64,000 nucleotides of DNA from Candidatus Methanoperedenaceae archaeon GB37 (GTDB lineage Archaea > Halobacteriota > Methanosarcinia > Methanosarcinales > EX4572-44). The position numbers and the translations under genes are program-made. Within the stretch, counting starts at the first letter, position 1; each line of letters opens with the position of its first letter. The stretch is from positions 1,338,150 through 1,402,149 of the forward strand of contig LR991653.1 of the NCBI GenBank assembly GCA_905171695.1. The letters run 5' to 3'. Below the pieces are notes generated by a model. It was not told where the DNA came from. It ran no database searches and was given only the letters and a program-made list of their open reading frames with translations. Positions 859 through 17,264 of the stretch are shown here, in pieces.

Positions 859-2850
859 ACACTTCGTATGGAGCCTGCGATTGCATCAGCTTTCATCTCC
901 TCGAGTTTGAAGTATCTCGCCTTGAACGCATCTGCAAGCTCTCGTGCTGTGCCAAGGTCGAGGAGTCCCTCGGTCGTATCGATCAGAACCGTTTCGATCT
1001 CATCGTCCACGATCGAGGAGGCGAGTTCCTTTGCTTCTTCGATCGGATTCTTTCCAGAGATGCTCACGTTCGCCCGCCCATCAGAGATCAGAACCATGAG
1101 GGGGGATGTATCTCTATTTTTCAAGAGTTCTTGCTTCAGAAGCTGATATCCTTTAAGAATTCCATGAGAGAGTGGTGTTCTTCCACCTGTTGGAAGATTA
1201 ACAAGGAGTTTTTCTGCAAGCTCCACGCTCGCGGTTGGAGCAAGGAGGAGATCTGCTCTATCCTTTCTGAATGTCACAAGTCCCACCCGGTCACGCCTGA
1301 TGTATGCGTCTTTGATGAGTGAGAGGATCGCACCTTTTGCTGCGACCATTCGCTCCTTCACACCCATCGAGCCTGAGGCGTCGACAACGAATAGGATCGT
1401 GTTACCGATCTTTCGCTCACGCACCTTCTCCCGAATGTCAGAAGGGTGGAGCGCGATCGCTCTATCACCCTTATCTCGACTCTTGAACCCTGGGTCTCCA
1501 CACGCTGCCCTTATGGTGGCATCGAACGCAACATCCCTACCCATGACCTCCCCTCTCGGGATTCTGCTCCGCACGTATCTTCCCCTCTTTGAGAGCGTCT
1601 TTGTTCGTCTTCCGCTCCCATTCCTCGTTATCCTATCCCGCTTGCTTGAGATCGGTTTAACCCTGAACGTATCCCCCACCGGGAATAGCTCCTCGCCCCC
1701 CTCACGTGCCTCCTCCTCTCCTTCACCCTGCTTTTCACCTTCATCCTCGCCTCTCTCCCCTCTACCCATATCATCCTCGCTCTTCTCATCGTTCGAGTCT
1801 TCTTTATTCTTTTTGTATCGTTCAATCGAGTCATCGATCATATTCTGGTCTATCTTTCCCTCTTCAAACGGCTTCTTTCGCATCCGGTGTGTGAGGACGA
1901 GCTCTGCGACCGCTCTCACGTCATCCTCAATGACTTCACACCGCCCCTCATACGCTGCGAATGCAGTTGCTGCCTTTGCAAGTGTTATATCTGCTCTGTG
2001 ACCATCAACCCCGCAATCGATGCAGAGGGATGCGATAAGCTCAAGTATATCATCAGGGACGAAGACCTCTGATAAGATCTCTTTTGCCCTGAGGATCCTC
2101 TCTCTGATGATCCTATCATCCCTCTCCCATGCCCTTTCAAAGGCAAACGGGTCCTCTTCGAAACTCTTCCTCCTTTTTATAACCTCAACTCTCTCTTTGA
2201 GGTCTTTTATCCCTTCAATCTCGGCGCAAAGACCGAATCGGTCGAGAAGCTGTGGTCTGAGTTCTCCCTCTTCAGGGTTCATCGTTCCAACAAGGATGAA
2301 GTGCGCCGGATGCGAGAACGAGACCCCTTCACGCTCAACGATAGTTGACGCCCATCGCAGCAGAAGTCGAGGAGTATGTCAACGATGTGATCATCGAGCA
2401 GGTTCACCTCATCAACATAGAGTATCCCGCGATGTGCCTCAGAGAGAACACCCGGCTCGAACCGCTTCTCACCCTCCTTAATCACATGCTCTATGTCAAG
2501 CGTTCCAACGACCCGATCCTCTGTCGCATTTATCGGAAGGTCAACAACCCTCATCGGCTCTCTCGTAACCTTCGAACTCCTCCCCTGCCTCGAAGCCGTG
2601 CTATGCACGAGGAGCACATCTCATGCCGATCGATCGGACTGCATCTGAAAGGACAGTCCTTGACAACATCGATCTCTGGAAGAAGATGAGCCAGCGCCCG
2701 CACAGCAGTCGACTTTGCAGTTCCCTTCTCGCCCCTGATAAGCACTCCACCGAGCTTTGGATCTATCACATTGAGTATGAGTGCCCGCTTCATCCGTTCC
2801 TGCCCAACGATAGCACTGAATGTGTACACCGATCTCTCAAAACACGTCAT
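849..2850 (-). pseudogene. ChlI/ChlD-type chelatase subunit (AAA+ ATPase fused to an acidic linker and VWA domain), broken by frameshifts
   Basis: Three consecutive ORFs in three frames (2850-2551, 2617-2279, 2282-849) together read as one ChlI/BchD-like protein: [38 protein letters not shown]; [40 protein letters not shown]; then SAAMGVNYR in a third frame; then [36 protein letters not shown]; an E/D-rich linker; and VWA MIDAS ILFVVDASGSMG. Confidence 0.75.
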
Positions 2851-2992
2851 CTTCTAAACCTCATACTTACTTTTTACTTCATTCAGTTAAAAATGTTGCT
2901 ACTGCATAATCTCTCCTTCGGAGCCATCTACTTGAAAAGATTTATAAGGGTTTAAATAGGCGTAGTGTTGTACATGTTGGTTGTGATATATA

Positions 2993-3559
2993 ATGTCCAA
3001 ACTTGATGAAGCTAAGAGATCGATCAAGATCGAGAACGTTGTTGCCTCCAGTTCTGTAGGTACCACACTCGACCTTCAGGAGGTCATCAAGGTTCTCGAA
3101 AACGCTGATTATAACAAGGAGCGATTTCCTGGAGTGGTCTATCGCACCACCAATCCAAAGACGGCTGCACTCATATTTGGGAGCGGAAAGATCGTGTGTA
3201 CTGGTGCAAAGAGCATACCCGACGTCAATAAAGGCCTTGAACAGGTCTTCGATCGCATACGCAAGACAGGTGTTGAGATACTGGACAAGCCAGAGGTCAC
3301 AGTTCAGAACATCGTAGCCTCTGCCAACATCGGTTCTGTCCTCAATCTCAACGGCATTGCTATTGGATTGGGGCTTGAAAACATTGAATACGAGCCAGAG
3401 CAGTTCCCAGGTCTTGTCTATCGGCTAAAAGAGCCAAAAGTTGTAATGCTCTTATTTGGCAGCGGAAAACTGGTGGTTACAGGTGGAAAGAAGGTAACAG
3501 ACGCCGAAGATGCTGTAACCAAGGTTATGGAAGAACTTGAGAACCTGAAATTGCTCTGA
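2993..3559 (+). CDS. tbp: TATA-box-binding protein
   Basis: 188 aa with the two direct TBP repeats: IENVVASSSVGTTLDLQEV...FPGVVYRTTNPKTAALIFGSGKIVCTGAKS and VQNIVASANIGSVLNLNGI...FPGLVYRLKEPKVVMLLFGSGKLVVTGGK. Confidence 0.95.
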   Translation: MSKLDEAKRSIKIENVVASSSVGTTLDLQEVIKVLENADYNKERFPGVVYRTTNPKTAALIFGSGKIVCTGAKSIPDVNKGLEQVFDRIRKTGVEILDKPEVTVQNIVASANIGSVLNLNGIAIGLGLENIEYEPEQFPGLVYRLKEPKVVMLLFGSGKLVVTGGKKVTDAEDAVTKVMEELENLKLL

Positions 3560-3586
3560 AAGAATATAACCAAGTTCTCAAGTGTT

Positions 3587-4426
3587 ATGGACGGTCTCCC
3601 GATACTCGACGACCACATGCACCTCGATCGGCGAGGCAGATTCCTAGCCGCGGCACGAGAGTTTGCCAGATCTGGCGGAACCCACATAATCCTCGTCTCA
3701 AAACCGCCATCGACGATCAATATCAAGATCGCCAAGCCAGACGACTATCGAGAGGTCTTCGACGAGACACTCACAATAGCCGAGAGAGTGAGAGAGACAG
3801 GGATAGAGGTCTTCGTCATACTCGGCGTCCACCCAGCCGAGATAACCCGGTTGACAAGAGAGAGAGGGCTCGAGAATGCCGTAGAGATGATGAAAGACGG
3901 ACTTAGAATCGCAGGTGGATACGTCGAAGAGGGGCTTGCGATCGGGCTTAAATCGGGGCGACCACACTACCCGGTCCCGGAAGACGTCTGGAGAGGATCG
4001 AATCAGATAATGGAGCATGCAATGATACTTGCAAAGGAACTCGACTGCGCCATCCAGCTTCACACCGAAGAGACAAGTGAGAAGGGACTGCGCGAGATAA
4101 AAGAGATGATGAAGAGAAGTGGGATACCGCCTGATCGCACAGTAAAGCACTACGCATCACCACTGCTGAAGGAGTTTGAAAGAGCAGAGATCTATCCAAG
4201 TATCATCGCAAGAGAGAAGAATATCGAAGAAGCCCTCCAGAACGGCACACGCTTCATGATGGAGACAGATTACATCGACGACCCAAGCCACCCAGGAGTC
4301 GTTCTCGGACCAAGAACCGTTCCAAAGAGGACGAATAAACTGATCAAAATATATGGCACAGAACCATTCTACAGAGTACACAAAGAGAACCCAGAGAGAG
4401 TATACCAGATAGAGATAGACCTATAA
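3587..4426 (+). CDS. TatD-family metal-dependent hydrolase
   Basis: 279 aa. It has the N-terminal LDDHMHLD metal-binding motif and later His/Glu/Asp positions (IQLHTEE, METDYIDD) typical of the TatD/amidohydrolase fold. Confidence 0.6.
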   Translation: MDGLPILDDHMHLDRRGRFLAAAREFARSGGTHIILVSKPPSTINIKIAKPDDYREVFDETLTIAERVRETGIEVFVILGVHPAEITRLTRERGLENAVEMMKDGLRIAGGYVEEGLAIGLKSGRPHYPVPEDVWRGSNQIMEHAMILAKELDCAIQLHTEETSEKGLREIKEMMKRSGIPPDRTVKHYASPLLKEFERAEIYPSIIAREKNIEEALQNGTRFMMETDYIDDPSHPGVVLGPRTVPKRTNKLIKIYGTEPFYRVHKENPERVYQIEIDL

Positions 4427-4443
4427 AACCAGGACTCGAAGCA

Positions 4444-4520
4444 GGGCTCGTAGTATAGCCTGGAGAGTACACTGGCCTCCGGAGCCTGAAACCCGGGTTC
4501 AAATCCCGGCGAGCCCACCA
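4444..4520 (+). tRNA. tRNA-Arg (anticodon CCG), CCA encoded
   Basis: Acceptor GGGCTCG/CGAGCCC; anticodon arm CTGGC-CTCCGGA-GCCTG (one U-U mismatch; loop has T33, CCG, G37); T arm CCGGG-TTCAAAT-CCCGG; discriminator A followed by CCA. Confidence 0.85.
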
Positions 4521-4579
4521 TAAAAATACCCCCTAAAACAACTCAAGTCATAGAATACCTTCATAGAACGGTAGTCACT

Positions 4580-4704
4580 GACCTCTAAATAGAGGGACGC
4601 CCGACAAATCAAAATTTCAAGGAAAATAGAGCATATTAGAGATTTTAAATCAAAAAGTAAATTTTTATAACTATTAGTGATTGCCGGGCATTCTTATAGA
4701 GGTC
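4580..4704. repeat. Imperfect inverted repeat pair flanking about 75 bp of AT-rich DNA (MITE-like or hairpin)
   Basis: GACCTCTAAATAGAGGGACGCCCGACAA (4580-4607) versus the reverse complement of TTGCCGGGCATTCTTATAGAGGTC (4681-4704). The outer GACCTCTA and inner GCCCGnCAA blocks match. Confidence 0.4.
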
Positions 4705-5033
4705 GGGGTATTTGGGAGGATGCTCATGAATTATATTTTGATATGATTATTTGTTATCTGATGCCAAATGAGGCGCAAATATGCGATTTATAATGAAGTA
4801 ATGACGAAACCATTGAGGGAAACGTTACCCTAAGACATATAGATTCTATAGTATTATTATGTAAATAATAATTTCACTCTACGTTTTAAGGGTTGTTAAC
4901 TTGCGTGGTGTTACCTTTGAAACTTTGCAATCTCTGCAATCTCTGCATATTCAAACCCGAGACAGAACCCAAAATACCTCAAATCAACAACGAACTCAAA
5001 ACAGTGTCAACATCATATACCATGACAGTACCG

Positions 5034-5610
5034 CATTTTATGCTGTGTTGAACAATTGGCTGAGAAGCTTCCTGGAATAAACCTTCAATAGTTTTTGCTC
5101 TGGATGTTTCTCCAAATGCTCTTTTAACTCCAGAAAAGAAGGCTTCAGATGCTCATCTCTTGCCATGTCTATACTTATCTCTCCAGGCTTCATATCCGAG
5201 TCTCTCCATTTCTCTCACCGTCTTGGTTCTTGATGGAGATCCCCTTGCTTTTGTGGATGAGTTCTTTCTCGTCTTTATTACTGCCTTGATCTTCTCTTCA
5301 TCAAGAAAGGTTGAAGTTATCTTACTATCATATACCTCCATTGCCATTGATACTCTTCTTAGTCTCTCTCACCAGCGCTATTAAGCATCTTTCCATCACC
5401 GGTTCTTTCATCCTCCAAAGCCAAAAGCCTCTCTTTCTTTTCACATCAACAAGCGATTGTGAACCTTGATCCAACCTTTATGTACTCTCCATTTATGTCT
5501 GATCCACTCTCCTCTACCTGTAACACACCAGATGAACCAATAGCAATAACGACATTCTCCAGATTTTCTATAGTATTCGGACAGTTTTCTTATAAAACTT
5601 TCTATCTGCC
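5034..5610 (-). mobile_element. Truncated IS5/IS4-type IS copy (fragment B), C-terminal transposase part only
   Basis: Starts with GCATTTTA+TGCTGTGTTGAACAATT, the same as the left end of the copy at 6767. ORF 5153-5347(-) ...NSSTKARGSPSRTKTVREMERLGYEAWRDKYRHGKR parallels the C-terminus of the 7007-7729 transposase. It is cut at 5610 by another IS end. Confidence 0.7.
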
Positions 5611-6766
5611 TGCTGTGTTGACCAAATGAGAAGATTTATTCGTATTCTTAATAATAAAATTATAAAAATAAGTAAATTTTATGGTATTGGATTTATTATC
5701 ACTATCAGGAGATTATTAACTCAAGAAATGAAACATATAAGATGGGGTAAAAAATTCGAAGATAAGAGAGACTGGAAGTAATATAACGGGAAGTAATATA
5801 ACGGGAAGTAATATAACGGGAAGTAATATAACGAGACGTTGGTCAGACGTGGAGAACTCTACCTCTCATTCGGTTTTCTGGATAGTTGGGATGATGAACT
5901 TGCTATAGATGAATGCGGGCAAAAGAGGAGCACCTTTCTCATACCCAGATCAGTTCGTTGCTTTTATGGGATTTATATATTCGATATTTCATATTCCCTA
6001 CAGGCAAATGGAAGGATTCTTGAGGAAACTTTCAGGTTTAGTTTCCCGAGACATAACAGCGGATTACACGACTTTATTCAAACGTATATCAAAAATGAAC
6101 TTTGATCTCCCAGAGACGATCTCGGAAGAAGAAGACGATATAGTAATAGCCGTAGATCTATCTGGTGTAAAGGTTACAAATCGTGGAGAGTGGATGAGAG
6201 AAAAATGGAGAGTGTACATGGGAGGGATCAAGGTACATATAGCAGTAGATATCAGCACTAAAGAGACTCTGGCTATTGAAGTAACAGATGAGACCGTGTA
6301 ACTGAGAGTGAAAAACTCGATAATCTTATAGATCAGGGAGGGGAGAACATAATATAGGAGGTAAGAAAATAAAACGTGTTTTGGGAGACGGTTGTCATGA
6401 CGATCGAGATTGCTTCAATACCCTGGATAAAAAGAAGATAGAATCTGGAATAAAAACACGAATTAATCCAAGTACGAGGCCGAGAAGACCGCCATACAGA
6501 GCTAAACGTGTTAGAGAAAAGAGAGAACTTGGTGACTACAAAGGTTGACGAGGCAAATATGAATATGGCAAACACCGGATCGTAGAAAGCGTACTCTCCG
6601 CTGTTAAAAGAATATTTGGCGAGATAGTGAGAACGACCAGCATCGAGGGAATCTTCAAAGAAGCAAAAATGAAGTTTAATTTGCTACAATATATTGTTGA
6701 ACTACGTATAGATTTAAAGAGAGTAAGAGAGGAAGTCAGAAAACTAAAGATTTATTCAACACAGCA
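5611..6766 (+). mobile_element. Degraded IS5/IS4-type IS copy (copy C) inserted into fragment B
   Basis: Ends are TGCTGTGTTGACCAAAT (5611) and TTATTCAACACAGCA (6752-6766). The interior encodes broken pieces homologous to the 7007-7729 transposase (LVRRGELYLSFGFLDSWDDEL; GKRGAPFSYPDQFVAFMGFIYSIFHIPYRQMEGFLRKLS...IVIAVDLSGVKVTNRGEWMREKW) with stops and frameshifts. Confidence 0.7.
5774..5833 (+). repeat. Perfect 4 x 15-bp tandem repeat (GGAAGTAATATAACG) inside the degraded transposase 5' region
   Basis: Read directly: units at 5774-5788, 5789-5803, 5804-5818 and 5819-5833. The unit corresponds to the W-K-E-Y-N codons of the intact homologue (KRNWKEYNEKLVRRGEL) but carries a TAA. Confidence 0.95.
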
Positions 6767-7784
6767 GCATTTTATGCTGTGTTGAACAATTAGCTGGATG
6801 GGGTATATCTTCAGGTAATTGTTTCTCTGAGAATGTAAGTTTAAACACTTATGAGCATGTTGTAGAAGATGAATTTCATCTTTACTTCTTGAAATAAAGC
6901 TTCTGTAGATCTTGCTCTGCATGTCTCTCCAAATACTCTTTTAACACCAGAGAAGAAACTCTCTGTTGTCCATCTGCAGCCATACCTGTATTTATCTTTC
7001 CATCTTTCATGACCTAACTCTTTTGGGTTCTCTTACTCTCTTAGCTCTGGATGGAGAGCCTCTTGACTTAGTTGAAGAGTTACTTCTTATCTTGATCACT
7101 GGTTCTACATTATTTTCAGCAAGATAATTGAAATTCTCTCTGCTATCATAACCTCCATCACCATATACCCTACTTATCTCTCCACCTCTTCCTTTAATTT
7201 GCTTTACCAGAGGTTTTAACATCTTTCCATCACCTGTTCTTTCATCTGTTATCTTTAAGGCTAAGAGTTTCCTTGTTTTAACGTCTATAGCAATATGAAC
7301 CTTAATCCAACCCTTTCTCGTTTTCCATTTATGTCTGATCCACTCTCCTCTATTCGTTATCTTCATACCAGACGAATCTATTGCAACTACAAGATCTTCT
7401 CCAAGATTACTAGAGAGTTCAAAGTCTAGTTTCCTCAACCTCTTACAAACAGTGGAATAATCAGCTACCTTTAACTCAGGTATATATTCTGATAATTTCC
7501 TCAAAAATCCTTCCATTTGTCTTAATGGAAGGAAAGCTACATGCAAGAAAGCTAGAAAACACATAAAGGTTCGAGGAAACCTGAAAGGTCTGCCAACCTT
7601 CCCCTCATTCATCCTATTTAATTCTTCATCCCAGTTCTCAAGGAAATCCAATGAGATATAGAGTTCTCCCCTCCGCACAAGTTTTTCATTATATTCCTTC
7701 CAATTTCTCTTACTCTGCATCCCAATCATCCCTCCTGTAAATGAGAAATACAGGAAGGAAACTTAAGAGTTATTCAACACAGCA
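6767..7784 (-). mobile_element. IS5/IS4-type IS copy (copy A), most complete, about 1 kb
   Basis: Terminal inverted repeats with core TGCTGTGTTGAA (6775-6786) and TTCAACACAGCA (7773-7784). It contains the transposase ORF at 7007-7729. Confidence 0.8.
6841..7729 (-). pseudogene. DDE transposase (IS4/IS5 superfamily) with a 1-nt frameshift near its C-terminus
   Basis: The 240-aa ORF reads MIGMQSKRNWKEYNEKLVRRGELYISLDFLENW...LPLRQMEGFLRKL...VVAIDSSGMKITNRGEWIRHKW...YGDGGYDS and ends ...KRVRS*. The conserved tail GHERWKDKYRYGCRWTTESFFSGVKRVFGE...YNMLISV continues in the +1 frame to 6841. Confidence 0.75.
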
Positions 7785-7787
7785 CTC

Positions 7788-8000
7788 AAGACTATAAAAG
7801 TAATAGTTGAAAAGCATCCTGAAGGATATGTGGCGTATCCTTTGGGGCTAAAAGGTGTAGTGGTTGGTGAAGGTAATACCTACGAGGAGGCACTTGCGGA
7901 TGTGAAGTCAGCTATCAAATTTCACATGGAAACCTTTGGAAGAGAGGTTTTTGAAAGTGAAGAGATTATGGAAACCTTTGTTGTAGAAGTGGCAGTGTAA
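7788..8000 (+). pseudogene. hicB: HicB-like antitoxin (UPF0150 type) that lost its start codon to the IS insertion
   Basis: Reads KTIKVIVEKHPEGYVAYPLGLKGVVVGEGNTYEEALADVKSAIKFHMETFG... with stop at 7998-8000. There is no in-frame start between the IS end (7784) and this sequence. Confidence 0.6.
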
Positions 8001-8218
8001 TGAAGTTCCCAAAAGATGCCCATAGGTGAAAGGTCATAAAAACATTCGAAAATCTCGGATTTAGAATAGCTAGAATGGGAGAACATATCTCAATGGTGAG
8101 AGAAAATCCAGATGGGACTAAAACTCCTTTAACCATGCCTAACCATGATAGGATAAAAGGTTCGACGCTGAGAGTTATTTGCAGGCAATCAGGTATAAAA
8201 GCGGGAGGAGTTTTTTAA
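8000..8218 (+). pseudogene. hicA: HicA-like mRNA-interferase toxin with an in-frame TGA at codon 10
   Basis: The ATG at 8000 overlaps the hicB stop (TAATG). It reads MKFPKDAHR-TGA(8027-8029)-KVIKTFENLGFRIARMGEHISMVRENPDGTKTPLTMPNHDRIKGSTLRVICRQSGIKAGGVF, which follows the HicA/YcfA pattern. Confidence 0.65.
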
Positions 8219-8236
8219 AAGCTTATGAAGAAACAT

Positions 8237-8277
8237 GAGTAACTTCGCCTAGGCTCGGAACGTTAGCAGAAATTCGG
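8237..8277 (+). repeat. Short-form cassette-junction site (E3): ...GAGTAAC...CGGAAC|GTTAGCAG-AAATTCGG
   Basis: Lies directly after hicA. GTTAGCAG (8262-8269) is the exact reverse complement of CTGCTAAC at 8836-8843. It shares GTTnnnnGAAATTC with the sites at 8852, 15006(-) and 27266. Confidence 0.55.
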
Positions 8278-8332
8278 GGCTCGTTTTTTGAAAAAGAAAG
8301 TTTAATAATTAAATATTGGATTCAAATGCATT

Positions 8333-8749
8333 ATGAATCACAGAAAAATATTGATCGTAAGTTTATTAGTGATCCTAGTCTTATCTAGTGTTTGGTTTGT
8401 TTTTAGTTTGCCTCCAACAAAAGCAACGGTTGAAAAATTTTTAAAAGAAAATAGTCGTAGTCTATCGTCCATTGAAACTGACTATGTTAGTGAATATTAT
8501 TGTGCCGCATATTTGAGAAGACATACAACATTATTAGGCGGACAAATTATTAGTGTCCCAAAATTTACATTTTTATTTGTTTTTACGCCATTTCACTATT
8601 TTAATTACATAGATCCAACTACTTTTGATAATCATGTATATGTTTTTGTTATTACAAGGGATGAAGGAATCTTAGTATACAATCCTGTTAATGGAGAATA
8701 TGTTGGTCGTTATGATGACTTACTTCAAAACATGAAAAACATTTCATGA
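8333..8749 (+). CDS. Hypothetical protein with an N-terminal membrane anchor (AT-rich cassette gene)
   Basis: 138-aa ORF beginning MNHRKILIVSLLVILVLSSVWFVF... I could not recognise a family. Confidence 0.5.
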   Translation: MNHRKILIVSLLVILVLSSVWFVFSLPPTKATVEKFLKENSRSLSSIETDYVSEYYCAAYLRRHTTLLGGQIISVPKFTFLFVFTPFHYFNYIDPTTFDNHVYVFVITRDEGILVYNPVNGEYVGRYDDLLQNMKNIS

Positions 8750-8793
8750 TACTTACATAAATGCATAGTTAAAATTTGTTGGATCGCCTCGAA

Positions 8794-8867
8794 CTCTGCG
8801 ACAACTTCGTTACCTTGCCCTCACTTCGTTCAGGTCTGCTAACCCGAATACGTTGTCCGAAATTCGG
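8794..8867 (+). repeat. Cassette-junction site (E2)
   Basis: CTCTGCGACAACTTCGTTACCTTGCCCTCACTTCG...CTGCTAAC-CCGAATAC-GTTGTCC-GAAATTCGG. The first 35 nt are homologous to 24661-24695 (CTCTGCGGAC...CCTTGCCTCGCCTTCGG). Confidence 0.55.
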
Positions 8868-8911
8868 CTCGGTGGCTTTAAAGATTTGAGAGTGGAAAAA
8901 GGTGAAAAATC

Positions 8912-9087
8912 ATGCTAGATGAGGCAGACACAAGGGTTAAACTGATGTATCTAAAATTGCATGAATCTGGATGGTCAGAAGATTTAATCTAGCTTTAGAG
9001 AGGTATTTTTCAATTGCTGTTGTGGAAGCAAAGGAAGAAGTAAAGCATCATGTAGTAGGAATTATAGAGGCAATGAGTTTTGGTTAG
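8912..9087 (+). pseudogene. Remnant of a type I/III restriction enzyme R-subunit N-terminal (HSDR_N-like) domain
   Basis: MLDEADTRVKLMYLKLHESGWSEDLI* followed by ...FSIAVVEAKEEVKHHVVGIIEAMSFG*. This matches the E-x-DTR-x-K-LI...GW and ...VVEAK... signatures but covers only about 55 codons and is broken by a stop. Confidence 0.4.
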
Positions 9088-9110
9088 GTGGGTTATGTTG
9101 GATACTATAA

Positions 9111-10004
9111 TTACCTGCTTACCTGCGCGCCTGCGCCTATCATGGTTTTATACTCGATTGAGTCTATGTCATGTTCTCTGAAGGCTTGCTTCATCGCATT
9201 GGCTATTCTATCGCGCTGGTTGAGCCTTGAGACTGCGATCATGGTTGGTCCTGAGCCGCTGATCGTAACACCGAGTGCGCCAGCGGCAGTAGCAGCCTTC
9301 TTCACGTCCATGTACCCTGGTATGAACTGTGAGCGTAGTTCCTCTATCACGTGATTCTCCATACCGAGTCCGATCAATTCGGGATCGCTTCTGAGCATGC
9401 CAGCGGTCATGAAAGCAGCGCTTCCGGCGTTGAAGACGAAATCGCTCATCTTGATCTTTAGAGGGAGGATCTTGCGCGCCTTTTTCGTGTTGACCTTCAC
9501 GAAGGGAGAGACCGCGGTTATCCCGATGTTCTTGGGTTTTATGCTGACAATCCTTCTCTCATGCACGATATTGAATCCTCCGAAGAGGGCTGCTGCCACG
9601 TTATCTGCATGTGGAATGCCCGCCGATACTCGCTCTCCTTCTGCTGCTATCCAGACGAGGTCCTCTCTTGAATGACCTGTGTTGTGGAGCACGTTTATCC
9701 CGAGTGCTGTTGCAGCGGCAGGTGCTGCACTGCTGCCAAGCCCGCTTGATATTGGGATCTCTGCGTGAATGGTTATCTGCACAGGATGACCCATCGCCTC
9801 TGCAACGATCCCTGCAGTATTCTCTTCAGGACTTGTCGGCACCTTCTCGCCATAAGTTCCGGTAACATCTATCGAGGTCTCATCACTGCTGCTCTCTGAG
9901 ACTTCAACGATGAGCCTTGGCTTGTCCAGTGCTATTCCGAAGATGTCAAAGCCTGCGCCGAGATTCGCACTCGTTGCGGGTGCTCTGACCTTCACAGATC
10001 TCAT
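9111..10004 (-). CDS. thrB: Homoserine kinase
   Basis: From the internal ATG at 10004: MRSVKVRAPATSANLGAGFDIFGIAL...PISSGLGSSAAPAAATA... (GHMP kinase motif), 297 aa. The upstream 168 codons of the 465-aa track ORF are low-complexity and overlap the divergent HIT gene. Confidence 0.85.
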   Translation of the reverse strand: MRSVKVRAPATSANLGAGFDIFGIALDKPRLIVEVSESSSDETSIDVTGTYGEKVPTSPEENTAGIVAEAMGHPVQITIHAEIPISSGLGSSAAPAAATALGINVLHNTGHSREDLVWIAAEGERVSAGIPHADNVAAALFGGFNIVHERRIVSIKPKNIGITAVSPFVKVNTKKARKILPLKIKMSDFVFNAGSAAFMTAGMLRSDPELIGLGMENHVIEELRSQFIPGYMDVKKAATAAGALGVTISGSGPTMIAVSRLNQRDRIANAMKQAFREHDIDSIEYKTMIGAGAQVSR

Positions 10005-10061
10005 TCTCAGCAAAAGAGATATATTCCGAGTATTAATAGATGGTGGTGTGGAGAGGATCGA

Positions 10062-10487
10062 TTGATGGAGTCTGAGTGTATATTCTGCAGGATAGTTGAT
10101 GGAGAGGTTCCGTCTGTGCGTGTCTATGAGGATGGTGAGCATCTTGCTTTTCTTGATGCAAATCCACGTTCCGAGGGGCATGTGCTGGCGATTCCGAAGG
10201 AGCATATAACAACTCTTGACGAGCTTGGAGACGAAGAGATAGCAAAGCTCTTTGTCGTGGTAAAACGGGTTGCAGAAGCCCTGAAGGAGAGAATGGGGGC
10301 AGAGGGATACAACGTTGTGAGCAACAACGGAGAGATCGCGGGTCAGGTGATACCTCACGTGCATATCCATGTAGTGCCGCGATACGCTGCTCAGGAGAGC
10401 AGGGCTGGCTTTGAGTCGGTATTGCCGGTCGACAGAAAAGCAAAGAGTCGGCTTGAAGAGGTTGGAGCGCGATTGAAGATCCAGTAG
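10062..10487 (+). CDS. HIT-family (histidine triad) nucleotide hydrolase
   Basis: 141 aa with CIFCRIVDGEVPS...ANPRSEGHVLAIPKEH...IPHVHIHVVPR (HxHxHxx triad). Confidence 0.9.
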   Translation: MMESECIFCRIVDGEVPSVRVYEDGEHLAFLDANPRSEGHVLAIPKEHITTLDELGDEEIAKLFVVVKRVAEALKERMGAEGYNVVSNNGEIAGQVIPHVHIHVVPRYAAQESRAGFESVLPVDRKAKSRLEEVGARLKIQ

Positions 10488-10889
10488 GGATGAAGAATTT
10501 GACTCCATGGTTTGCAGAGATCAGCATAGTTATACAAACCTGAACACAATATGGTCAGGAGATATTACGCCGAGTACGGTCTGCTAAGCACTGTGTGACG
10601 TTATTTGTAATGATCATCTCTAAATTTCCTACTTCTTTTTTCATAGCCTATCATCTGTAAACTCAAATCACACACAAATGTAATATATAAATAAAACGAT
10701 TTTTAGTTGTTAAATGGCACATATTGGCTTATACGATGCTGTAATTGAAGTCAAATTATGCAAGAATAATTTTTCGGCTCAGAGTAACGTTTGTATACCG
10801 AGGACATTATTCACGTGCAAAATATGTACGATAATATATTTAAAAAATAATTACTTAATAAAAGTTTCAATTAAAAAATTTAGAAATAT

Positions 10890-11105
10890 TTAAATGAAAT
10901 CTTTAAATGTTTTCTGTTTTTTGTATACTGGCAAAATTTTGGCACTCCGAACGGCTGAATCATTAAATTTCATATCGAATTTTTCCTCAAGTAGGGCTTT
11001 ACCTTCTTTACAAGCTTTTTCTCGATACTTATCACTAGCAAAAATATGGCCTTTCCACTTGTTAGCTATATAACTTTCTAGCCATCCTTTCGGGGACCCG
11101 TCCAC
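10890..11105 (-). pseudogene. 3' part of a gene split by the IS6-like element
   Basis: The frame opens exactly at the IS terminus (V/M)DGSPKGWLESYIANKWKGHIF... The 5' part is ORF 11772-12188(-), which ends inside the other IS terminus. Confidence 0.5.
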
Positions 11106-11794
11106 ATAGGATTATAAATATGGGAGACTATCTTTTATTTATGCTGAGGGTAAGGGAAATTGTTGAAGAGTTGAAGGTGTTTGAGAGGAATAAGGTTCCT
11201 TTTGAGGTTAAGGTTCTCGGTGTTGCAACCTATATTCAGACGTCTTCTGTGAGAAGGACTGCTAGAATTCTCTCTGAGCTTCATCCAGTCTCTAAAACCT
11301 CTGTTTGGAACTGGATACGGAAGTTTGAAGAGAAATTGCCTGTTGTATCAGAGAAGAAGAGAAGATACTCTATAGCATTGGACGAAACAGTTGTTAAATC
11401 AAATAAAAAGGCGTACTATGTCTATTCTGCGGTAGATGTTGAGAAGAACGAGTTAATTCTGATGAGAGTTTATACAAACAGAAATTATCTTGTTTCAAGG
11501 TCTTTTCTCAAAGAAGTGCTAAAGTTCTGCGAGAACAAGCCAAGATTCATCGTTGATAAAGCTCCCTGGCTTATAGATGCACTGAAAAGCCTGGATCTGG
11601 AATTTGAGCATCAAACCTTTCGGAGAGAGAAACCTGGTTGAATCGGTGTTTTCTTCGCTAAAACATAGAATAAAGATATTCTTTTTCTCAATTAGCTCTT
11701 TTAACCCTGTTAAAAACTGGAATTTCTTCTGTAAGCTCTTTATGCTTTATTATAATCGGTTGAGGTGGTGTTTATATTAAGTGGACACGTCCCC
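11092..11794 (+). mobile_element. IS6-family-like insertion sequence (about 0.7 kb)
   Basis: 14-bp terminal inverted repeats GGGGACCCGTCCAC (11092-11105) and GTGGACACGTCCCC (11781-11794), 12/14 complementary. It carries a single transposase gene. Confidence 0.75.
11120..11780 (+). pseudogene. IS6-type DDE transposase with a frameshift
   Basis: The 173-aa ORF reads ...SIALDETVVKSNKKAYYVYSAVDVEKNELILMRVYTNRN...IVDKAPWLIDALKSLDLEFEHQTF and then stops (RREKPG*). The conserved continuation GERNLVESVFSSLKHRIKIFF...YYNRLRWCLY* is in the +1 frame, ending at 11778-11780. Confidence 0.7.
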
Positions 11795-12188
11795 ACTTCT
11801 CCATTTTTAAATCGAATTCTTCTAAATGTCTTCCTTCACGAAATTCTTCTGCTAGATAGGCAGGGCAAACAAGTATTGATTCCATGTATTTATCATGTTT
11901 ATCTGAGATTTGATTTCTATTATTAAAATCCTGTTCTAGGTCACAATCTTGGGTTAAAACAATAATATACGGCACATTTTTTTCTACAACATTATATTTT
12001 GATCCTATGTCATCAGCATATTGCATTTCTAACAATAGCATATCTCTTAAAATATCTCCCTGATAGACCCTTCCGTTATTACGCTTACAGTATTGAGTAT
12101 CAACTTTTGAGGGAAACATAGGCAACGACCCTTTTTCTTGCCTTCGTTTTGGGGTATTTTGAAACATCCAATTCGACATCGTATTCAT
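11772..12188 (-). pseudogene. 5' part of the IS-disrupted gene (unknown function)
   Basis: Reads ...GRVYQGDILRDMLLLEMQ...VPYIIVLTQDCDLEQDFNNRN...ILVCPAYLAEEFREG...MEKWGRVHLI*. The last codons are IS terminus sequence. The true start is probably an internal Met (12167 or 12119) because the 5' end overlaps ORF 12100-12303. Confidence 0.45.
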
Positions 12189-12303
12189 TCATGGGTTCAT
12201 TAATGAGTCTTTTAGAGACATTAATAATCTTATTTTTAACTATAGTTTCTGTTTCGTATTCATCATCTGAAGAATACTTATTTTCCGTTTCAGTGGAATT
12301 CAT
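12100..12303 (-). CDS. Small acidic hypothetical protein (67 aa)
   Basis: Its ATG overlaps the stop of the upstream gene (ATGA at 12300-12303), which suggests translational coupling. The sequence is rich in D/E/T. Confidence 0.4.
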   Translation of the reverse strand: MNSTETENKYSSDDEYETETIVKNKIINVSKRLINEPMNEYDVELDVSKYPKTKARKRVVAYVSLKS

Positions 12304-13037
12304 AATGAATCCTCCTCAATTATTTCTTTGATCTTAGAACCGATACTCTCCTTAAATTTTATCTTTACTAGGTTGTGCATATTATTCAATAAAGTAAACG
12401 TTTCGTTGAAATCACGAGGCTCTTTTGTGTAGCAATCATAATCCAACACAAATTCCCTTTTTGATATTGGATTCGGGAACTCGCTGTTGTACATCCCATA
12501 TTGAAATTTCATTAGAAAGTCATCGTAATTATAAACTATTGTGCCCATACATCTTGCTAAAGTTTTTTTCTCGCTTACAAATTCTAACGATTTAAATAGA
12601 TTTGAATTGATCCAGTTCTCCCAATCAAACGGATTTCCCTCATTTAGCGTTATTTGGTTAATATATTTTAGGCCCAAACGCGCACTGTTTCCTTCTAAAT
12701 TCAATTCATCTATAACAGTCTTTATTAATTTTCTAAAACGTTCAAATGATAAATATTTGGAAACCTCTATCCAAATGGCATTCTCATCAATATGAATCCA
12801 TTCGGTTTCTTGCTCATTCTTAAAATCAAAAGTCTCACTTCGTCTCCTTATGGTTTTTTGCTCGTTTGCCCCCATCATAACTTCAACAGTCTCTAACTGA
12901 CCTTCATTATATTTAGGCAACTCATCCTTTATTTTTTCTTTCGCTTTTCTTAGATAGTCTATAGGGATTTTTTTACGCTCTTCAAAATCGATTTTAAAAA
13001 CAACTTTTGTTAAAAAATTGTCTCTCCCCTCAACCAT
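12300..13037 (-). CDS. Hypothetical protein (245 aa), first gene of a three-gene minus-strand unit
   Basis: Long uninterrupted AT-rich ORF. GGAGG lies 8 nt upstream of the ATG (13043-13047, minus strand). I could not confidently assign a family. Confidence 0.55.
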   Translation of the reverse strand: MVEGRDNFLTKVVFKIDFEERKKIPIDYLRKAKEKIKDELPKYNEGQLETVEVMMGANEQKTIRRRSETFDFKNEQETEWIHIDENAIWIEVSKYLSFERFRKLIKTVIDELNLEGNSARLGLKYINQITLNEGNPFDWENWINSNLFKSLEFVSEKKTLARCMGTIVYNYDDFLMKFQYGMYNSEFPNPISKREFVLDYDCYTKEPRDFNETFTLLNNMHNLVKIKFKESIGSKIKEIIEEDSL

Positions 13038-13177
13038 AGTATTCCTCCGTTTTGCTTAATTCAATTTTATCCATCGCGTGTAGAGATTAGGTGAAGGGTG
13101 TTAAAAAAACTTTCCGTTTCATCTTTAAAACCAATTCCCTCTCTTATTGAAAATTTGGGTCTTCGCCTCGCGAAGCC

Positions 13178-13195
13178 GTTTAACCCCCGTTATGC
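13178..13195 (-). repeat. Short-form junction site (E6): GCATAAC-GGGG-GTTAAAC (minus-strand reading)
   Basis: The plus strand reads GTTTAAC-CCCC-GTTATGC. It is adjacent to the perfect hairpin CTTCGC-CTC-GCGAAG (13161-13175). Confidence 0.4.
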
Positions 13196-13315
13196 CGGGT
13201 TGCGTAGCAATCTGGTTCATGTTTCTTCCTCTCGTTTTCTTCGTTAAACGAATCCAAGCCCTGTTTCTTTTGGTGGTTCAGGTCTCCTTTCCTCCGGGAA
13301 GGAGAATTGGAAATT

Positions 13316-13394
13316 TTGGCTAACGTTCTGCGGATAAAAGAAGTTGCCGAAGGCAATTTGGACGAAGCGTAGCGAAGCCTTTTATTAGATGATG
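13316..13394 (-). repeat. Long-form attC-like structured repeat (E5), decayed copy
   Basis: About 90% identical to 14323-14408 over TAACGTTyTGCGGATAAAAGAAGTTGCCGAAGGCAATTTGGrCGAAGCGyAGCGAA. Relative to that copy it lacks 7 nt (CCGCTGT), which removes half of one stem arm. Confidence 0.7.
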
Positions 13395-13410
13395 TGCGGA
13401 GTCCATATTA

Positions 13411-14259
13411 TCAATAGCCTCCAAAGAATCTTATAAAATCAATAAACCAATGAAATGTAATAGCAGTCTCTAAATTTCGTTTATATTGTAAAAATGCCAT
13501 CGGCAATCCAAATAAAAAACTGGTAGATATTAGCATAAATAGAGCACCTGGTATATTATGTATCCATAATTCTGGAAAGTGAATTAAACTGTGTGGAACT
13601 ATACCAAAGAAAAAACTAATTATAACTGAGTATTTCCTCTCAACCTTCCCTTCCAATAAATAAAATATGAAATTCATAGTAAAAAACCTAAATATAATCT
13701 CTTCAGAGATTCCTGGTGCTAAAGCTAAAAAACCTGCACTAAATATGTTTGTCCATTCAGCCTCACCTAAAGTCAGTCTAAAATAGATGTAATTTATTAA
13801 TGCAAAAGGTAATGCAACTATAAGACCTATTAAAAATGACTTAAATAATGATTTATACTTCTGTAATATGAGTAATGACTTGTTTCTATTACTTCCACCC
13901 GATAATAAACTACCTCCAAGAAATGCAACAAATGTTACAATAGAGTTAATTACTACTGTGAATATGTCTGTTTGTTGAATAAAACTAAAATAACTTATAC
14001 CCGATAACAATATTCCAAGCGCAATATATCTTAAACTCAACCACTTAAATTTCTTATAAATTACTATTAAAGCAAGACAAAATATATAATATTCTGTCCA
14101 TGTCCAGGCTCTATATGTAAACCCAGAATCCTGTTTACTTAGTGTATGGACAATTGAAATTATGTATATTAAAACAAATATGGTGAACAAAAGTATGGTG
14201 TATATAAAATATTTCTTGAAATTATTATTCATATCTTTATTTAAAACAACGCTTCTCAT
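13411..14259 (-). CDS. CPBP-family intramembrane glutamic endopeptidase (CAAX protease/Abi-like)
   Basis: 282 aa, polytopic. It has the three CPBP motifs: GISEEIIFRFF (EExxxR), FGIVPHSLIH (FxxxH) and ITFHWFIDF (HxxxD/N). Confidence 0.75.
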   Translation of the reverse strand: MRSVVLNKDMNNNFKKYFIYTILLFTIFVLIYIISIVHTLSKQDSGFTYRAWTWTEYYIFCLALIVIYKKFKWLSLRYIALGILLSGISYFSFIQQTDIFTVVINSIVTFVAFLGGSLLSGGSNRNKSLLILQKYKSLFKSFLIGLIVALPFALINYIYFRLTLGEAEWTNIFSAGFLALAPGISEEIIFRFFTMNFIFYLLEGKVERKYSVIISFFFGIVPHSLIHFPELWIHNIPGALFMLISTSFLFGLPMAFLQYKRNLETAITFHWFIDFIRFFGGY

Positions 14260-14322
14260 TATATCTTGATTCCTCTCTTTCTTTTTCTTTAATCAATATT
14301 CCAATTACCATCACATTAGCAT

Positions 14323-14408
14323 GTCATCTAACGTTTTGCGGATAAAAGAAGTTGCCGAAGGCAATTTGGGCGAAGCGCAGCGAAATCTTTTATCCGCTGT
14401 TATATGAC
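14323..14408 (-). repeat. Long-form attC-like structured repeat (E4)
   Basis: Minus-strand reading: GTCATATAAC-A-GCGGATAAAAG-(38 nt incl. TTGCCTTCGGCAA hairpin)-CTTTTATCCGC-AAAAC-GTTAGATGAC. It has a perfect 11-bp stem pair, and the outer boxes are 9/10 complementary. Confidence 0.8.
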
Positions 14409-14462
14409 CCGAAGGGTAAGGTTGCAAAGCAACCATAGAGTACCGAACCCCGTCTAATATTT

Positions 14463-14927
14463 TCATTTTGGCTTACTATACCACTCTTTTTTTCCTTTAA
14501 GGAATTCATCCACTCCTTTTTTCTTAATTCTCCTTAGATTTCTTATATGGGCATCCCCGTGATTCGGCTTTAAAAAGTCCAGCTTCTCGCATGTTTCAAA
14601 TTCATCGCACTCCCAGCACCCCTCAAATCCTCTCTTCTGGCAACATTTCCTTATCTTGCAGAAAGGCGGACCTCCACCACCTCTGCAAGCGTTCTTGCAT
14701 CGCATTTTTACTAATGCACCCAGCACTTCATAGCATTCACTGTAGTTCTTGTATGCGGCAAAGAACGGCATCGTAGCCAGGTATTCCGCTGTCTTGTCAA
14801 ATTTTGTCTCTCTTAATTCTTTTCTGAGATCCCTTGCCAAATCTGCCGCCTTTTGCCTGTATCCAATACAATCCCCACAATAAAGACCACAGTATGCGAT
14901 TAGGTCCTTGTATTCTTTATTATTCAT
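14463..14927 (-). CDS. Cysteine-rich protein (DUF3795-like)
   Basis: 154 aa with YCGLYCGDCIGY near the N-terminus and a C-terminal Cys cluster (CKNACRGGGGPPFCKIRKCCQKRGFEGCWECDEFETC). GGAGGT lies 8 nt upstream of the ATG. Confidence 0.55.
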   Translation of the reverse strand: MNNKEYKDLIAYCGLYCGDCIGYRQKAADLARDLRKELRETKFDKTAEYLATMPFFAAYKNYSECYEVLGALVKMRCKNACRGGGGPPFCKIRKCCQKRGFEGCWECDEFETCEKLDFLKPNHGDAHIRNLRRIKKKGVDEFLKGKKEWYSKPK

Positions 14928-14997
14928 TTCTTGACCTCCATAAATGACACTTTGAATCTCTTTAATATTTCTATTTCCAAAGGCAGGGTTCGGAATT

Positions 14998-15018
14998 TCA
15001 TATAACTATGTTATATCA
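14998..15018. repeat. Palindromic minimal site TCATATAAC-TAT-GTTATATCA at the boundary of the cassette region
   Basis: Read directly. It overlaps the stop codon (15011-15013) of the CcdA/DsbD-like gene. Its minus-strand half GTTATATGA-AATTCCG matches the conserved GTTnnnnGAAATTC motif. Confidence 0.7.
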
Positions 15019-16363: not shown

Positions 16364-16504
16364 GAAGATCTCCGTAACAGCCTCTTTTTTAATCTGCTTA
16401 GAGATAAAGCATAGGGGCAGGGCATGAAAAAGAGAGGGGGTTAGGGTGTGACTGAGGGGGAACGATCGGGTTTTGATCGGGTTTTATACTTCCCAGGCAG
16501 AGGT

Positions 16505-17137: not shown

Positions 17138-17264
17138 CGTTACTGCCGTCCACTCGTACTCTCTTCTGGATAATCGGTCCCTCATCCAAACTCTCTCCTC
17201 GGGATGAATGCACCGATTCTCCAGGAGCAGGTTCTCTAATACTCGTTCTATAATATTAGTCTTA

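Follow-up and report, generated by a model that had tools for sequence, protein, structure and literature searches.

The DNA considered here is a stretch of 64,000 nucleotides from Candidatus Methanoperedenaceae archaeon GB37 (GenBank assembly GCA_905171695.1, contig LR991653.1, positions 1,338,150 to 1,402,149; hereafter the window), and our subject is an open reading frame (ORF) at 8333-8749 together with the two short sites, A and B, between which it lies and with which it probably forms a gene cassette (Table 1). We take the host to be the ethane-oxidising archaeon Ca. Ethanoperedens thermophilum; exact matches to the encoded protein were found in LR991654.1 (1.92-Mb Candidatus Ethanoperedens thermophilum), in a contig of the sister assembly and in one read-assembly contig. 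The ORF is part of a patchwork between 4.5 and 25 kb that comprises a tRNA-Arg gene, nested DDE-transposase fragments, a damaged hicBA pair, the ORF 8333-8749 unit itself, GHMP-kinase and HIT genes of core-like composition, an IS240 fragment, a series of small, AT-rich genes on the minus strand, a gene resembling DsbD and the effector operon of a type III CRISPR system. The window as a whole is archaeal, with genes for a TATA-binding protein (2993-3559) and for HerA. No Pfam domain was matched by the protein of ORF 8333-8749, whose hydrophobic N-terminal stretch we read as a putative membrane anchor or signal.

A sequence-only reading of this DNA had noticed that the octamers GTTAGCAG (8262-8269) and CTGCTAAC (8836-8843), which bracket the ORF, are exact reverse complements. 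This is the case, all strings that it quoted lie where it had placed them, and the pair is one base longer than the 8/8 first claimed, with GTTAGCAGA (8262-8270) matching TCTGCTAAC (8835-8843) at 9/9 positions. When no position is fixed in advance, a helix of equal length between the 34-nt start of the unit and its shuffled 94-nt 3' region arises in 58/5000 shuffles; when GTT and AAC are anchored by homology to other copies, the six free positions all pair, with p = 2.4e-4. In addition, GTTNNNNGAAATTYS is present in three copies in the window, all of them at unit boundaries (8262, 8852 and, on the minus strand, 15006), against a shuffle mean of 0.38, and three copies were reached in 0/100 shuffles. 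We refer to the sequence that runs to AAC as the left arm of a site and to that which starts at GTT as the right arm; sites A, B and E3 (the last at 15.0 kb) carry GTTNNNNGAAATTYS, and the same right arms stand behind full sites or attI junctions in four of the loci used for comparison, which are given L numbers throughout (L085, L112, L161 and L205).

The same rule governs two further units of the window. In the 13-15 kb minus-strand array, with which the pair had been compared, GTTATATGA (15006-14998) pairs with TCATATAAC (14407-14399) at 9/9 positions, and in the other unit GTTAGATG pairs with CATCTAAT at 7/8, so that the AAC/GTT flanks pair within the unit and are oriented with the gene in the plus-strand unit and in both minus-strand units alike. 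The sites at 14.4 and 24.7 kb have what we call the long form, in which a left arm running to AAC is followed by one base, a perfect 11-12 bp stem with two small hairpins, four or five unpaired bases, G|TT and a right arm that varies. Neither of the two sites beside ORF 8333-8749 has the 11-12 bp stems seen at 14338-14349/14386-14397 and 24712-24723/24781-24792. The long-form site E2 folds stably as DNA on its two strands (z -3.7 and -5.1) and scores 85.6 bits with nhmmer, and that at 24660-24804 gives z -3.0 and -4.0 and 38.4 bits; E1, at 13.3 kb, shares a 66-nt repeat 92% identical to E2 and scores 69.5 bits, and showed no stable DNA fold against shuffles (z +0.1).

Table 1. Coordinates of the ORF 8333-8749 unit, read as a putative cassette, and of the other sites of the window
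Feature	Position	Strand	Sequence or remark
Left half of site A, what remains of the 3' end of the hicBA unit	8241-8261	+	AACTTCGCCTAGGCTCGGAAC; AAC abuts the next GTT; no inner hairpin
Site A	8257-8277	+	CGGAAC|GTTAGCAG-AAATTCGG
Cassette start, right arm of site A	8262-8283	+	proximal arm GTTAGCAGA (8262-8270); conserved extension AAATTCGGGGCTCG (8270-8283)
AT-rich cassette leader	8284-8332	+	GAAAAAGAAAG, then TTTAATAATTAAATA about 25-30 nt before ATG
Cassette ORF	8333-8749	+	ATG, 138 aa
Candidate distal left-arm segment	8781-8793	+	GGATCGCCTCGAA; would pair with TTCGGGGC(TCG) at 8273-8283
5' block, structured insertion interrupting the left arm	8794-8834	+	CTCTGCGACAACTTCGTTACCTTGCCCTCACTTCGTTCAGG
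Proximal left arm of site B, part of the ORF 8333-8749 cassette	8835-8843	+	TCTGCTAAC; 9/9 against 8262-8270
Site B	8836-8867	+	CTGCTAAC-CCGAATAC-GTTGTCC-GAAATTCGG
Centre of site B	8844-8851	+	CCGAATAC; here long forms carry A, 11-12 bp stem, variable hairpins, stem and AAAAC
Start of next unit, truncated remnant	8852-8872	+	GTTGTCCGAAATTCGGCTCGG
Site E1, long form, degenerate left stem	13309-13402	-	CATCATCTAAT ... CTTTTATCCGC-AGAAC-GTTAGCCAAAATTTCC
Site E2, long form	14323-14451	-	distal arm GGGGTTCGG, 5' block, TCATATAAC, A, GCGGATAAAAG ... CTTTTATCCGC, AAAAC, GTTAGATGAC
Site E3, first junction of the minus-strand array, hairpin-less	14986-15025	-	CTCGGAGTGATATAAC-ATA-GTTATATGAAATTCCGAACCC (ATATAAC-ATA-GTTATAT)
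Long-form site behind the type III CRISPR operon	24660-24804	+	5' block, TCATATAAC, A, TGCGGGTATGCG ... CGCATACCCGCA, AACC, GTTATACC

To place these sites in a family, one genome per species was scanned with a pattern, AATTGC..GCAACTTC..CCGCANANCGTT, made from the positions common to the 14.4-kb and 24.7-kb copies. This returned at least 116 loci, in Atribacteria, Aerophobetes, WOR-3, Dehalococcoidia, Cloacimonadota, Bacteroidota and Patescibacteria and, further, in ANME-1, GoM-Arc1, Methanoperedens, Altarchaeum, Nitrosotalea and others; many of the lineages with such sites, bacterial and archaeal, are anaerobic. The aligned copies share the consensus (ACTTC)NNNNAAC-A-GCGGATAAAAGG-(variable hairpin)-CCCAAATTGCCTTCGGCAACTTC-TTTTATCCGC-AAAAC-GTTNNNN-GAAAT, and a sequence model of this alignment finds arrays of 2-5 copies on the same strand, with most neighbours 0.6-1.8 kb apart. 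Consensus folding of a 109-sequence alignment gave a 5-bp hairpin alone, owing to gap columns, and was not used.

The sequence-only reading had proposed that its rule would fail if the AAC/GTT flanks of other units, scanned genome-wide, paired within units no more often than by chance; in arrays of the same site family from other genomes the rule held strongly. We mapped AAC and GTT through the model alignment and compared, over 11 variable positions, the right arm of each site with the left arm of the next. Among neighbouring same-strand sites (n=38) the mean was 6.3/11, with 26% of pairs at nine or more, as against 4.6/11 and 1% for random arm pairs from different loci (n=19,780; Mann-Whitney p = 4e-6); the two arms of one site (n=156) had a mean of 4.7/11, with 1.3% at nine or more, and did not differ from random pairs (p = 0.31). 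In some units all 14 bases pair, as at L021, GTTATACGCCATTG with CAATGGCGTATAAC. Pairing within the unit is the mark of cassettes that form circles and insert again through strand exchange at one border of the site, and neither a small transposon nor a terminator would lead one to expect it.

These data bear on the simplest objection, that the inverted pair around ORF 8333-8749 is a coincidence. Octamers recur often, and AAATTCGG by itself is at chance level in the window; against this stand the anchored probability given above and the recurrence of the same rule in two more units of the window and in 38 site pairs elsewhere. The related objection, that the elements are repeats with no bearing on mobility, for example conserved terminator structures at 3' ends or miniature transposons that have terminal inverted repeats, draws on the fact that the elements stand at the 3' ends of genes, are oriented with them and fold stably. 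Miniature transposons predict direct target duplications, however; the complementarity observed joins the outer flanks of neighbouring elements, and within an element pairing is at chance. Terminators would leave unexplained both the covarying arms of homologous cassettes and the strand-specific enrichment of sites downstream of one recombinase family, which are described below, and at Rfam gathering thresholds two tRNAs alone were matched in the window, with no match for the elements. We regard coincidence and immobile repeats, taken together, as highly improbable.

A second part of the site is the 5' block, which at 8794-8834 is homologous to 24660-24701 and to 14441-14408 on the minus strand. 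The homology to the 24.7-kb element had been claimed before and is borne out by the expression CCTT[AG]CC..CTTCG..GTC...TAAC, whose matches in the window are solely 8813-8843, 14399-14421 (minus) and 24680-24710. That the blocks are shared thus stands, and the position assigned to them does not: rather than lying upstream of the site, the block is a structured insertion of 34-49 nt inside a longer left arm. It is a bulged insertion of this kind because the sequence on both of its sides pairs with the cassette start, the part upstream of the block pairing beyond the GTT arm clearly in three other units and weakly in that of ORF 8333-8749. Examples of such distal pairing, from units with homologous cassettes and from the DUF3795 unit of the window, are GGGGCAAAAATAATA/TATTATTTTTGCCCC and GGGTTCGG/CCGAACCC, each reached in 0/2000 shuffles. 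The distal segment of the present unit, GGATCGCCTCGAA, is homologous to GGCTCGCCCCCGAAAC of the L127 copy, in which an 11-bp core of the distal helix pairs perfectly. At L093 a 5' block nearly identical to that of the 8794 element leads to the same CTGCTAAC arm and then to a full inner hairpin; further homologues of the block were found in L022, L035, L098 and L102.

The three hairpin-less sites, A (8241-8283), B (8835-8872) and E3 (minus, 14986-15025), are standard for the family in their right halves and not in their left. At A and B, AAC or TAC stands directly against GTT, and if the preceding TAG/TAA is taken as the end of the left arm both have 10-nt centres, GCTCGGAACG and CCCGAATACG. 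Within the left half of site A, which has no fold of its own (DNA fold against shuffles, z +1.9), AACTTCGCCTA matches the common left-arm extension of the family, AACTTCGCCTAAC, and GGCTCGGAAC resembles the left halves of attI-type junctions, (G)TTCGGA..AAC. The right arm GTTAGCAGAAATTCGGG, as at 8262-8283, follows a full long-form site in L085. In site B, GAAATTCGG had been singled out as a separate box and is instead the conserved continuation of the right arm, present at cassette starts in many genomes; starts similar to GTTGTCCGAAATTCGGCTCGG occur behind a full site in L112 (GTTGTCCGAAAAT) and at an attI junction in L161 (GTTATATGAAATTCGGCTTGG), and no GGACAAC left arm that would match this start was found ahead of the GHMP-kinase gene at 9111. 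The centre of site B, CCGAATAC, may be a remnant of the left half of an attI or the collapsed left arm of the next unit, and nothing else like site B was found among 1.28 Mb of related loci. Candidate origins of the hairpin-less sites in general are the collapse of a palindromic inner hairpin, the retention of attI-left remnants and insertion at secondary sites.

The right half of E3 shows about 45 nt of homology to the first cassette after attI in L205, and its format is that of the attI junctions of L132 and L026. The adjacent DsbD-like gene (15011-16363) has its stop codon, TAA, within the ATATAAC arm of E3, and its last codons are an attI-left-half-like sequence, which suggests that the array became fused to this gene by a deletion that removed a recombinase gene. 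We also considered whether 15.0-24.8 kb (DsbD-like gene, 263-aa ORF and type III operon) could be a giant cassette running on the plus strand from E3 to the 24.7-kb site, the arms of which agree at 9/10 positions, and rejected this; the match is uninformative because seven of the positions are ATATAAC, the commonest arm of the family. Past E1, at 13150-13200 on the minus strand, GGCATAAC-GGGGGTTAAAC-GGCTTCGCGAGGCGAAGACC may be a degenerate site of the same array, with no left arm matching its GTTAGCC found further on. Within the insertion sequence (IS) nest, at 5771-5845, the 15-nt unit ACGGGAAGTAATATA is repeated in tandem about five times and each copy contains ATATAAC, possibly by coincidence.

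We found 23 homologues of ORF 8333-8749, in DPANN archaea, in Methanophagales and in metagenomic contigs, in neighbourhoods unrelated to one another. The closest of those described here, 76% identical and from a DPANN-type archaeon (L127), stands in an array in the order EcoRI-methylase and GmrSD genes, the homologue, a nucleoside deoxyribosyltransferase gene and so on, and a 64%-identical homologue lies between acetyltransferase and deoxyhypusine-synthase genes in another organism. The cassette start at 8262-8283 is homologous to the starts of the L127 and L124 copies (AAGTTTCGGGGGCTCG); homology between copies begins at the TTA of the right arm and takes in the leader (AAGTTTCGGGGGCTCG..GAAAAGAAAG), and the outer flanks are unrelated. 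The arms covary, TTAGCAG/CTGCTAA in the window corresponding to TTATACGC/GCGTATAA in L127. A motif of the leader is also kept in the L127 homologue, as GAAAAGAAAGTTTTATATG, and from its sequence we infer that the leader is a cassette-borne archaeal promoter with B recognition element (BRE) and TATA box, which would give a leaderless or short-leader mRNA. The sequence model of the family found no matches round the homologues of ORF 8333-8749; the arrays there use hairpin-less sites, GCCGTATAA-CAGCGA-TTATACGC in L127 and GTGCGCATAA-TATGTG-TTATACGC in L124, with inverted arms around a 6-bp centre. The copy at L124:3855-4600 is in addition enclosed by a direct repeat of 17 bp, TTTTTCTTGTAATAAAT, and the site at its 3' end breaks off after the start of the 5' block; this is a second, unexplained kind of cassette boundary. 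A 2.9-kb indel between two otherwise near-identical DPANN contigs (L126:4659-7545 against L120), which carries a Fic gene and small ORFs, was examined as a possible cassette polymorphism and set aside; its flanks carry a direct repeat of 13 bp, TATTTATAAATCT, in place of AAC/GTT sites.

The enzyme that would move such units was sought at the family loci with an IntI1 sequence that scored 799 bits against the IntI1 family model. Of the 116 listed site loci, 6 have a tyrosine recombinase gene and another 5 a 3' fragment of one. Four of the six full-length genes (L035, L096, L018 and L047), and likewise the 3' fragments, have long-form sites downstream on their own strand; at L020 and L060 the nearest long-form site is not in this same-strand downstream arrangement. 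Hairpins ending AAC..|GTT follow the recombinase gene by about 40-130 nt in L035, L096, L018, L020 and the fragment loci, the attI-like junction of L035 being GTATATCCGAACAGTTCGGATATAACCGA|GTTAGCC, and no such junction was seen in L047 or L060. The recombinases are about 37% identical to IntI1, and their best NCBIfam is NF040815 (XerA / integron integrase). Their match to TIGR02249 (integron integrase) is split in two, at 156-233 bits against a cut-off of 265; in alignment with IntI1 they are without insertions of 29 and 10 residues, and the best match in the PDB, VchIntIA (2A3V), aligns in two pieces that skip residues 180-238. Every full-length recombinase found adjoining the arrays is without the additional domain that defines integron integrases.

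The association was also examined from the side of the enzyme, in 80 metagenome loci encoding the recombinase, with a site defined as AAC, at most 3 nt, a stem of at least 8 bp, 2-7 nt and GTT. Downstream of the gene there are 2.75 sites per 10 kb on the strand of the gene and 0.13 on the opposite strand, and upstream 0.25 on each strand, an 11- to 20-fold strand-specific enrichment. Spacers of 1 nt on the 5' side and of 5 nt on the 3' side predominate at these sites, and the architecture is general, beyond one repeat family, because the inner sequences at the recombinase loci are diverse. A complete platform of recombinase, attI-like site and cassettes is found at 830-4915 of L035, a Candidatus Desulfofervidaceae metagenome-assembled genome, whose long-form site is, by eye, almost identical to the 14.4-kb site of the window. 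The family name matches that of the sulfate-reducing partner of alkane-oxidising archaea, and the likeness hints at exchange between syntrophic partners.

We consider it likely that 8262-8851 is a single gene cassette, belonging to an integron-like system with a tyrosine recombinase as its motor. In such a system, an excised circle would bring the first bases of the cassette (GTTAGCAGA-AAATTCGGGGCTCG) beside its last (GGATCGCCTCGAA, the 5' block and TCTGCTAAC), and the joined ends, presumably folded as a single strand, would make up the stem of one recombination site; strand exchange, which we place at G|TT, would integrate the circle, and a site in an array would be a hybrid, its left arm contributed by the cassette 5' of it and its right arm by the cassette 3' of it. 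On this view the flanks pair within the unit, and not within the site, because every array site is a hybrid of two cassettes. In other genomes the enzyme would be the IntI/XerA-like recombinase without the additional domain, its gene followed by an attI-like double hairpin ending AAC..|GTT and then by the array, and an enzyme of this type presumably acted in the archaeon.

How close this brings the system to canonical integrons can be judged point by point. Archaeal integrons have been published, and these have canonical attCs and domain-bearing integrases (Ghaly et al. 2022, PMC9668308). Like integrons, the present sites have AAC and G|TT core boxes and are hybrids in which the cassette start pairs with the cassette's own 3' arm, in the place of the R'' box of its attC (9/9 here, 9/9 and 7/8 on the minus strand, and p = 4e-6 over the 38 pairs); the units hold mostly one ORF, form same-strand arrays with 0.5-1.5 kb spacing, can adjoin an attI-like site, stand in many clusters with no integrase nearby, and occur in both domains of life. 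AAC and GTT are found at every site, and the variable positions fit RYYYAAC / G|TTRRRY loosely (CTGCTAAC, GTTAGCAG), left arms of the family including ATATAAC, GCCTAAC and GTATAAC. Unlike integrons, the family has asymmetric spacers, a perfect 11-12 bp inner stem and no extrahelical bases, an inner region with a sequence largely kept from phylum to phylum, a forked 5' block that some copies carry and, at the loci examined, a recombinase without the additional domain whose gene lies on the cassettes' strand. Hairpin-less sites also occur, as at ORF 8333-8749, where the boxes of A and B are 0 and 8 nt apart as against 50-130 nt in a canonical attC. An integrase with the additional domain beside an attI was found neither among the window ORFs scanned nor in the related loci, and the extrahelical bases, symmetric spacers and attC-model detection of canonical sites were likewise absent, the long forms having a perfect stem and sites A and B no inner stem. 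In the fold of its sites and in its enzyme the integron-like system departs from a canonical integron. Within its own family, the right arm G|TT-NNNN-GAAAT(T..) of the cassette pairs across it with the left arm (ACTTC)NNNNAAC, and the perfect inner stem with a 1-nt 5' and 4-6 nt 3' spacer is present at 13.3, 14.4 and 24.7 kb and absent at A and B, which are degenerate or junction-type members for that reason.

It could nevertheless be argued that the units are an ordinary cluster of attC sites lacking an integron integrase (CALIN), with canonical attCs served by a standard, domain-bearing IntI encoded elsewhere or in another organism. The core boxes, the pairing within cassettes and the arrays of uniform orientation are all classical integron features, integrons and CALINs have been reported in archaeal genomes including ANME-1 and Methanoperedens (PMC9668308), and one family locus contains a textbook canonical attC, at L096:3288-3351 on the minus strand. 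For a direct comparison we built an attC covariance model, R1, from that of aadA7 and from six attCs of archaea for which recombination had been shown by experiment (sequences in Data S9 and S10, PMC9668308), a small model that is not that of IntegronFinder. With these seven validated attCs behind it, R1 matched no family site in 20 sources, none in 19 family loci and, with filters off, nothing at 13.3, 14.4 or 24.7 kb nor at sites A and B; it misses the family sites because of their spacers, 1 nt against 4-5 nt, and their perfect inner stem. Spacers of 1 and about 5 nt, in place of about 5 and 5-6, the lack of extrahelical bases and the lack of the additional domain in all full-length recombinases found adjoining the arrays also count against a CALIN, and the accession of this genome and its genus name are absent from the supplementary tables of the archaeal survey (PMC9668308) as far as these were available. 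On balance we find a CALIN of this kind quite unlikely. The attC of L096 itself scores 36.7 bits with R1 and shares its 4.9-kb locus with a recombinase without the additional domain and a non-canonical site, and the canonical and non-canonical systems can therefore coexist at one locus.

Sedentary chromosomal integrons have conserved attC families, for example the Vibrio cholerae repeats. The present sites are like these in being long and in having an inner sequence highly conserved between the cassettes of an array, and unlike them in that the conservation spans many phyla and both domains and is not confined to one host lineage. The forked sites of the family also recall the attP(+) site of CTX phage, a forked, folded hairpin of single-stranded DNA.

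A further alternative is Xer recombination. The units would then be modules bounded by dif-like double-stranded sites and moved by the host dimer resolvase XerA, as in bacterial elements that exploit Xer or the pdif modules of Acinetobacter plasmids, with no dedicated integrase. Archaeal XerA/dif has been described (Cortez et al. 2010, PMC2958812), and E3 resembles the dif of P. abyssi, ATTGGATATAA-TCGGCC-TTATATCTAAA. The hairpin-less sites of the homologous arrays at L127 and L124 have the ATAA-N6-TTAT architecture, with inverted arms around 6-bp centres, and some 0.3 kb away from the L127 array there is a divergent recombinase gene, next to MCM, of a type annotated as XerD/tyrosine recombinase in Woesearchaeota and Nanoarchaeota. 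The array-linked recombinases, too, are as close to XerA as to IntI. In the window, E3 comes near to this architecture, with a 5-bp centre; A and B have 10-nt and not 6-nt centres with poor arm symmetry, and a strict dif-like palindrome scan (at least 8/9 arm positions) did not single out the sites, although a scan that missed E3 and the L127 sites was too blunt. Unlike Xer/dif and pdif modules, the family has arms that differ between cassettes, a pattern more in keeping with recognition of structure than of a specific sequence, and its arrays are direct rather than alternating. The conserved inner hairpin of the long forms and the existence of dedicated recombinase-attI platforms also misfit a simple dif model, and we judge this explanation unlikely.

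The integron-like reading of ORF 8333-8749 has its own difficulties. The sites that flank the ORF are without the inner hairpin and show no fold (z +0.4 and +1.9), and the distal-arm pairing in this unit is 7/13, reached by 971/5000 shuffles and not significant. No tyrosine recombinase was found among the larger ORFs scanned in the 64-kb window, and no attI-like double hairpin platform upstream; in a protein search with the L127 enzyme, the 120 matches listed were all DPANN-type, with none from the 1.92-Mb Ethanoperedens genome. With the simple scan, sites were seen at no more than about half of the recombinase loci. The ORF's more distant homologues, with identities of 48-57% (P0013, P0016, P0018 and P0020), are in operon-like or provirus-like contexts without recognisable sites. 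The same arrangement is present in the sister strain and in an independent read assembly, with no sign of recent cassette movement, and recombination by this site family is itself deduced from the comparison of sequences.

The cassette of ORF 8333-8749 is probably real and acquired, and now an immobile, fixed relic of a decayed array, since the inner hairpins are absent, the hicBA unit upstream is cut by an IS end, the unit downstream is a 260-bp stump and the window holds no recombinase among the ORFs scanned. The sister strain diverges from the window from position 11091 onward, and is therefore without the 11-15 kb array at the equivalent position. Beyond this single copy, we advance with some reserve, and as less than probable, the wider proposal that these are decayed arrays of a distinct, undescribed sister lineage of integrons. 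Its integrase would stand between XerA and IntI, be without the additional domain and be encoded on the strand of the cassettes, with these behind an attI-like double hairpin; an asymmetric 1/5-nt bulge would replace the extrahelical bases, forked branches and hairpin-less dif-like variants would occur, and the lineage would extend over many anaerobic bacterial and archaeal phyla, syntrophic partners included.

Other features of the surroundings were noted in passing. Window positions 1-18749 are 98.4% identical to L001 (LR991654.1) over 18.7 kb and 99.97% identical to the read-assembly contig (ERR3841957); the DNA of the window seems to derive from another assembly or strain than LR991654.1. 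The hicBA pair (7830-8220) is damaged, with the hicB ORF beginning just after an IS inverted repeat (approximately 7772-7786) and an in-frame TGA at codon 10 of hicA. In the stump after site B, a 27-codon ORF at 8912-8995, MLDEADTRVKLMYLKLHESGWSEDLI, looks by its sequence like the N terminus of a type I restriction R subunit; in the sister strain, genes for type I restriction-modification lie some 7 kb beyond (L002:17096-20417). The final RAMP gene of the type III operon (23731-24660) contains, within its 3' end at 24454-24549, four exact tandem copies of the 24-nt unit GGTGGAAAAATACCGCACCCTATA, which would encode a repeated octapeptide. A tRNA at 24944-25049, which starts 140 nt past the long-form site at 24660-24804, is spanned by an Rfam call of 106 nt and is not found by a bacterial tRNA finder, and is for this reason taken to be an intron-containing archaeal tRNA. 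At 52320-63488 a type I-B-like cas set (Cas8b, Cas7, Cas5, Cas3 and Cas6b) is followed by more RAMP genes, at 27-42% G+C.

The additional domain of integron integrases reads the extrahelical bases of folded attC sites, and standard pipelines define these enzymes by it; because the domain is their criterion, such pipelines would not call the present recombinases integron integrases. We found no paper on these sites, on integron-type platforms without the domain or on Xer-dependent archaeal cassette arrays in a literature whose coverage was incomplete. In one classification paper the insertion is described as 'not fully conserved' in the integron-like subgroup (PMC8138268), and integron integrases are considered to derive from Xer-type recombinases by gain of one extra domain (PMC4792948). 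For the genome at hand the message is modest: ORF 8333-8749 is an acquired accessory gene, and the region from 4.5 to 25 kb is a variable island made up of IS elements, CRISPR genes and what is left of cassettes and toxin-antitoxin pairs. If its enzyme is without the domain and its sites are without extrahelical bases, a widespread cassette system of this kind would be a natural test of the Xer-to-integron scenario. The near-identical sites in archaea and bacteria of the same anoxic habitats, exemplified by the alkane-oxidising archaeon of the window and by Desulfofervidaceae (L035), by name the family of its sulfate-reducing partner, point to a concrete channel of gene flow across domains. 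The sister lineage, if it exists, would be a surviving intermediate that links Xer/dif with integrons, and a path along which genes could pass from one domain of life to the other.

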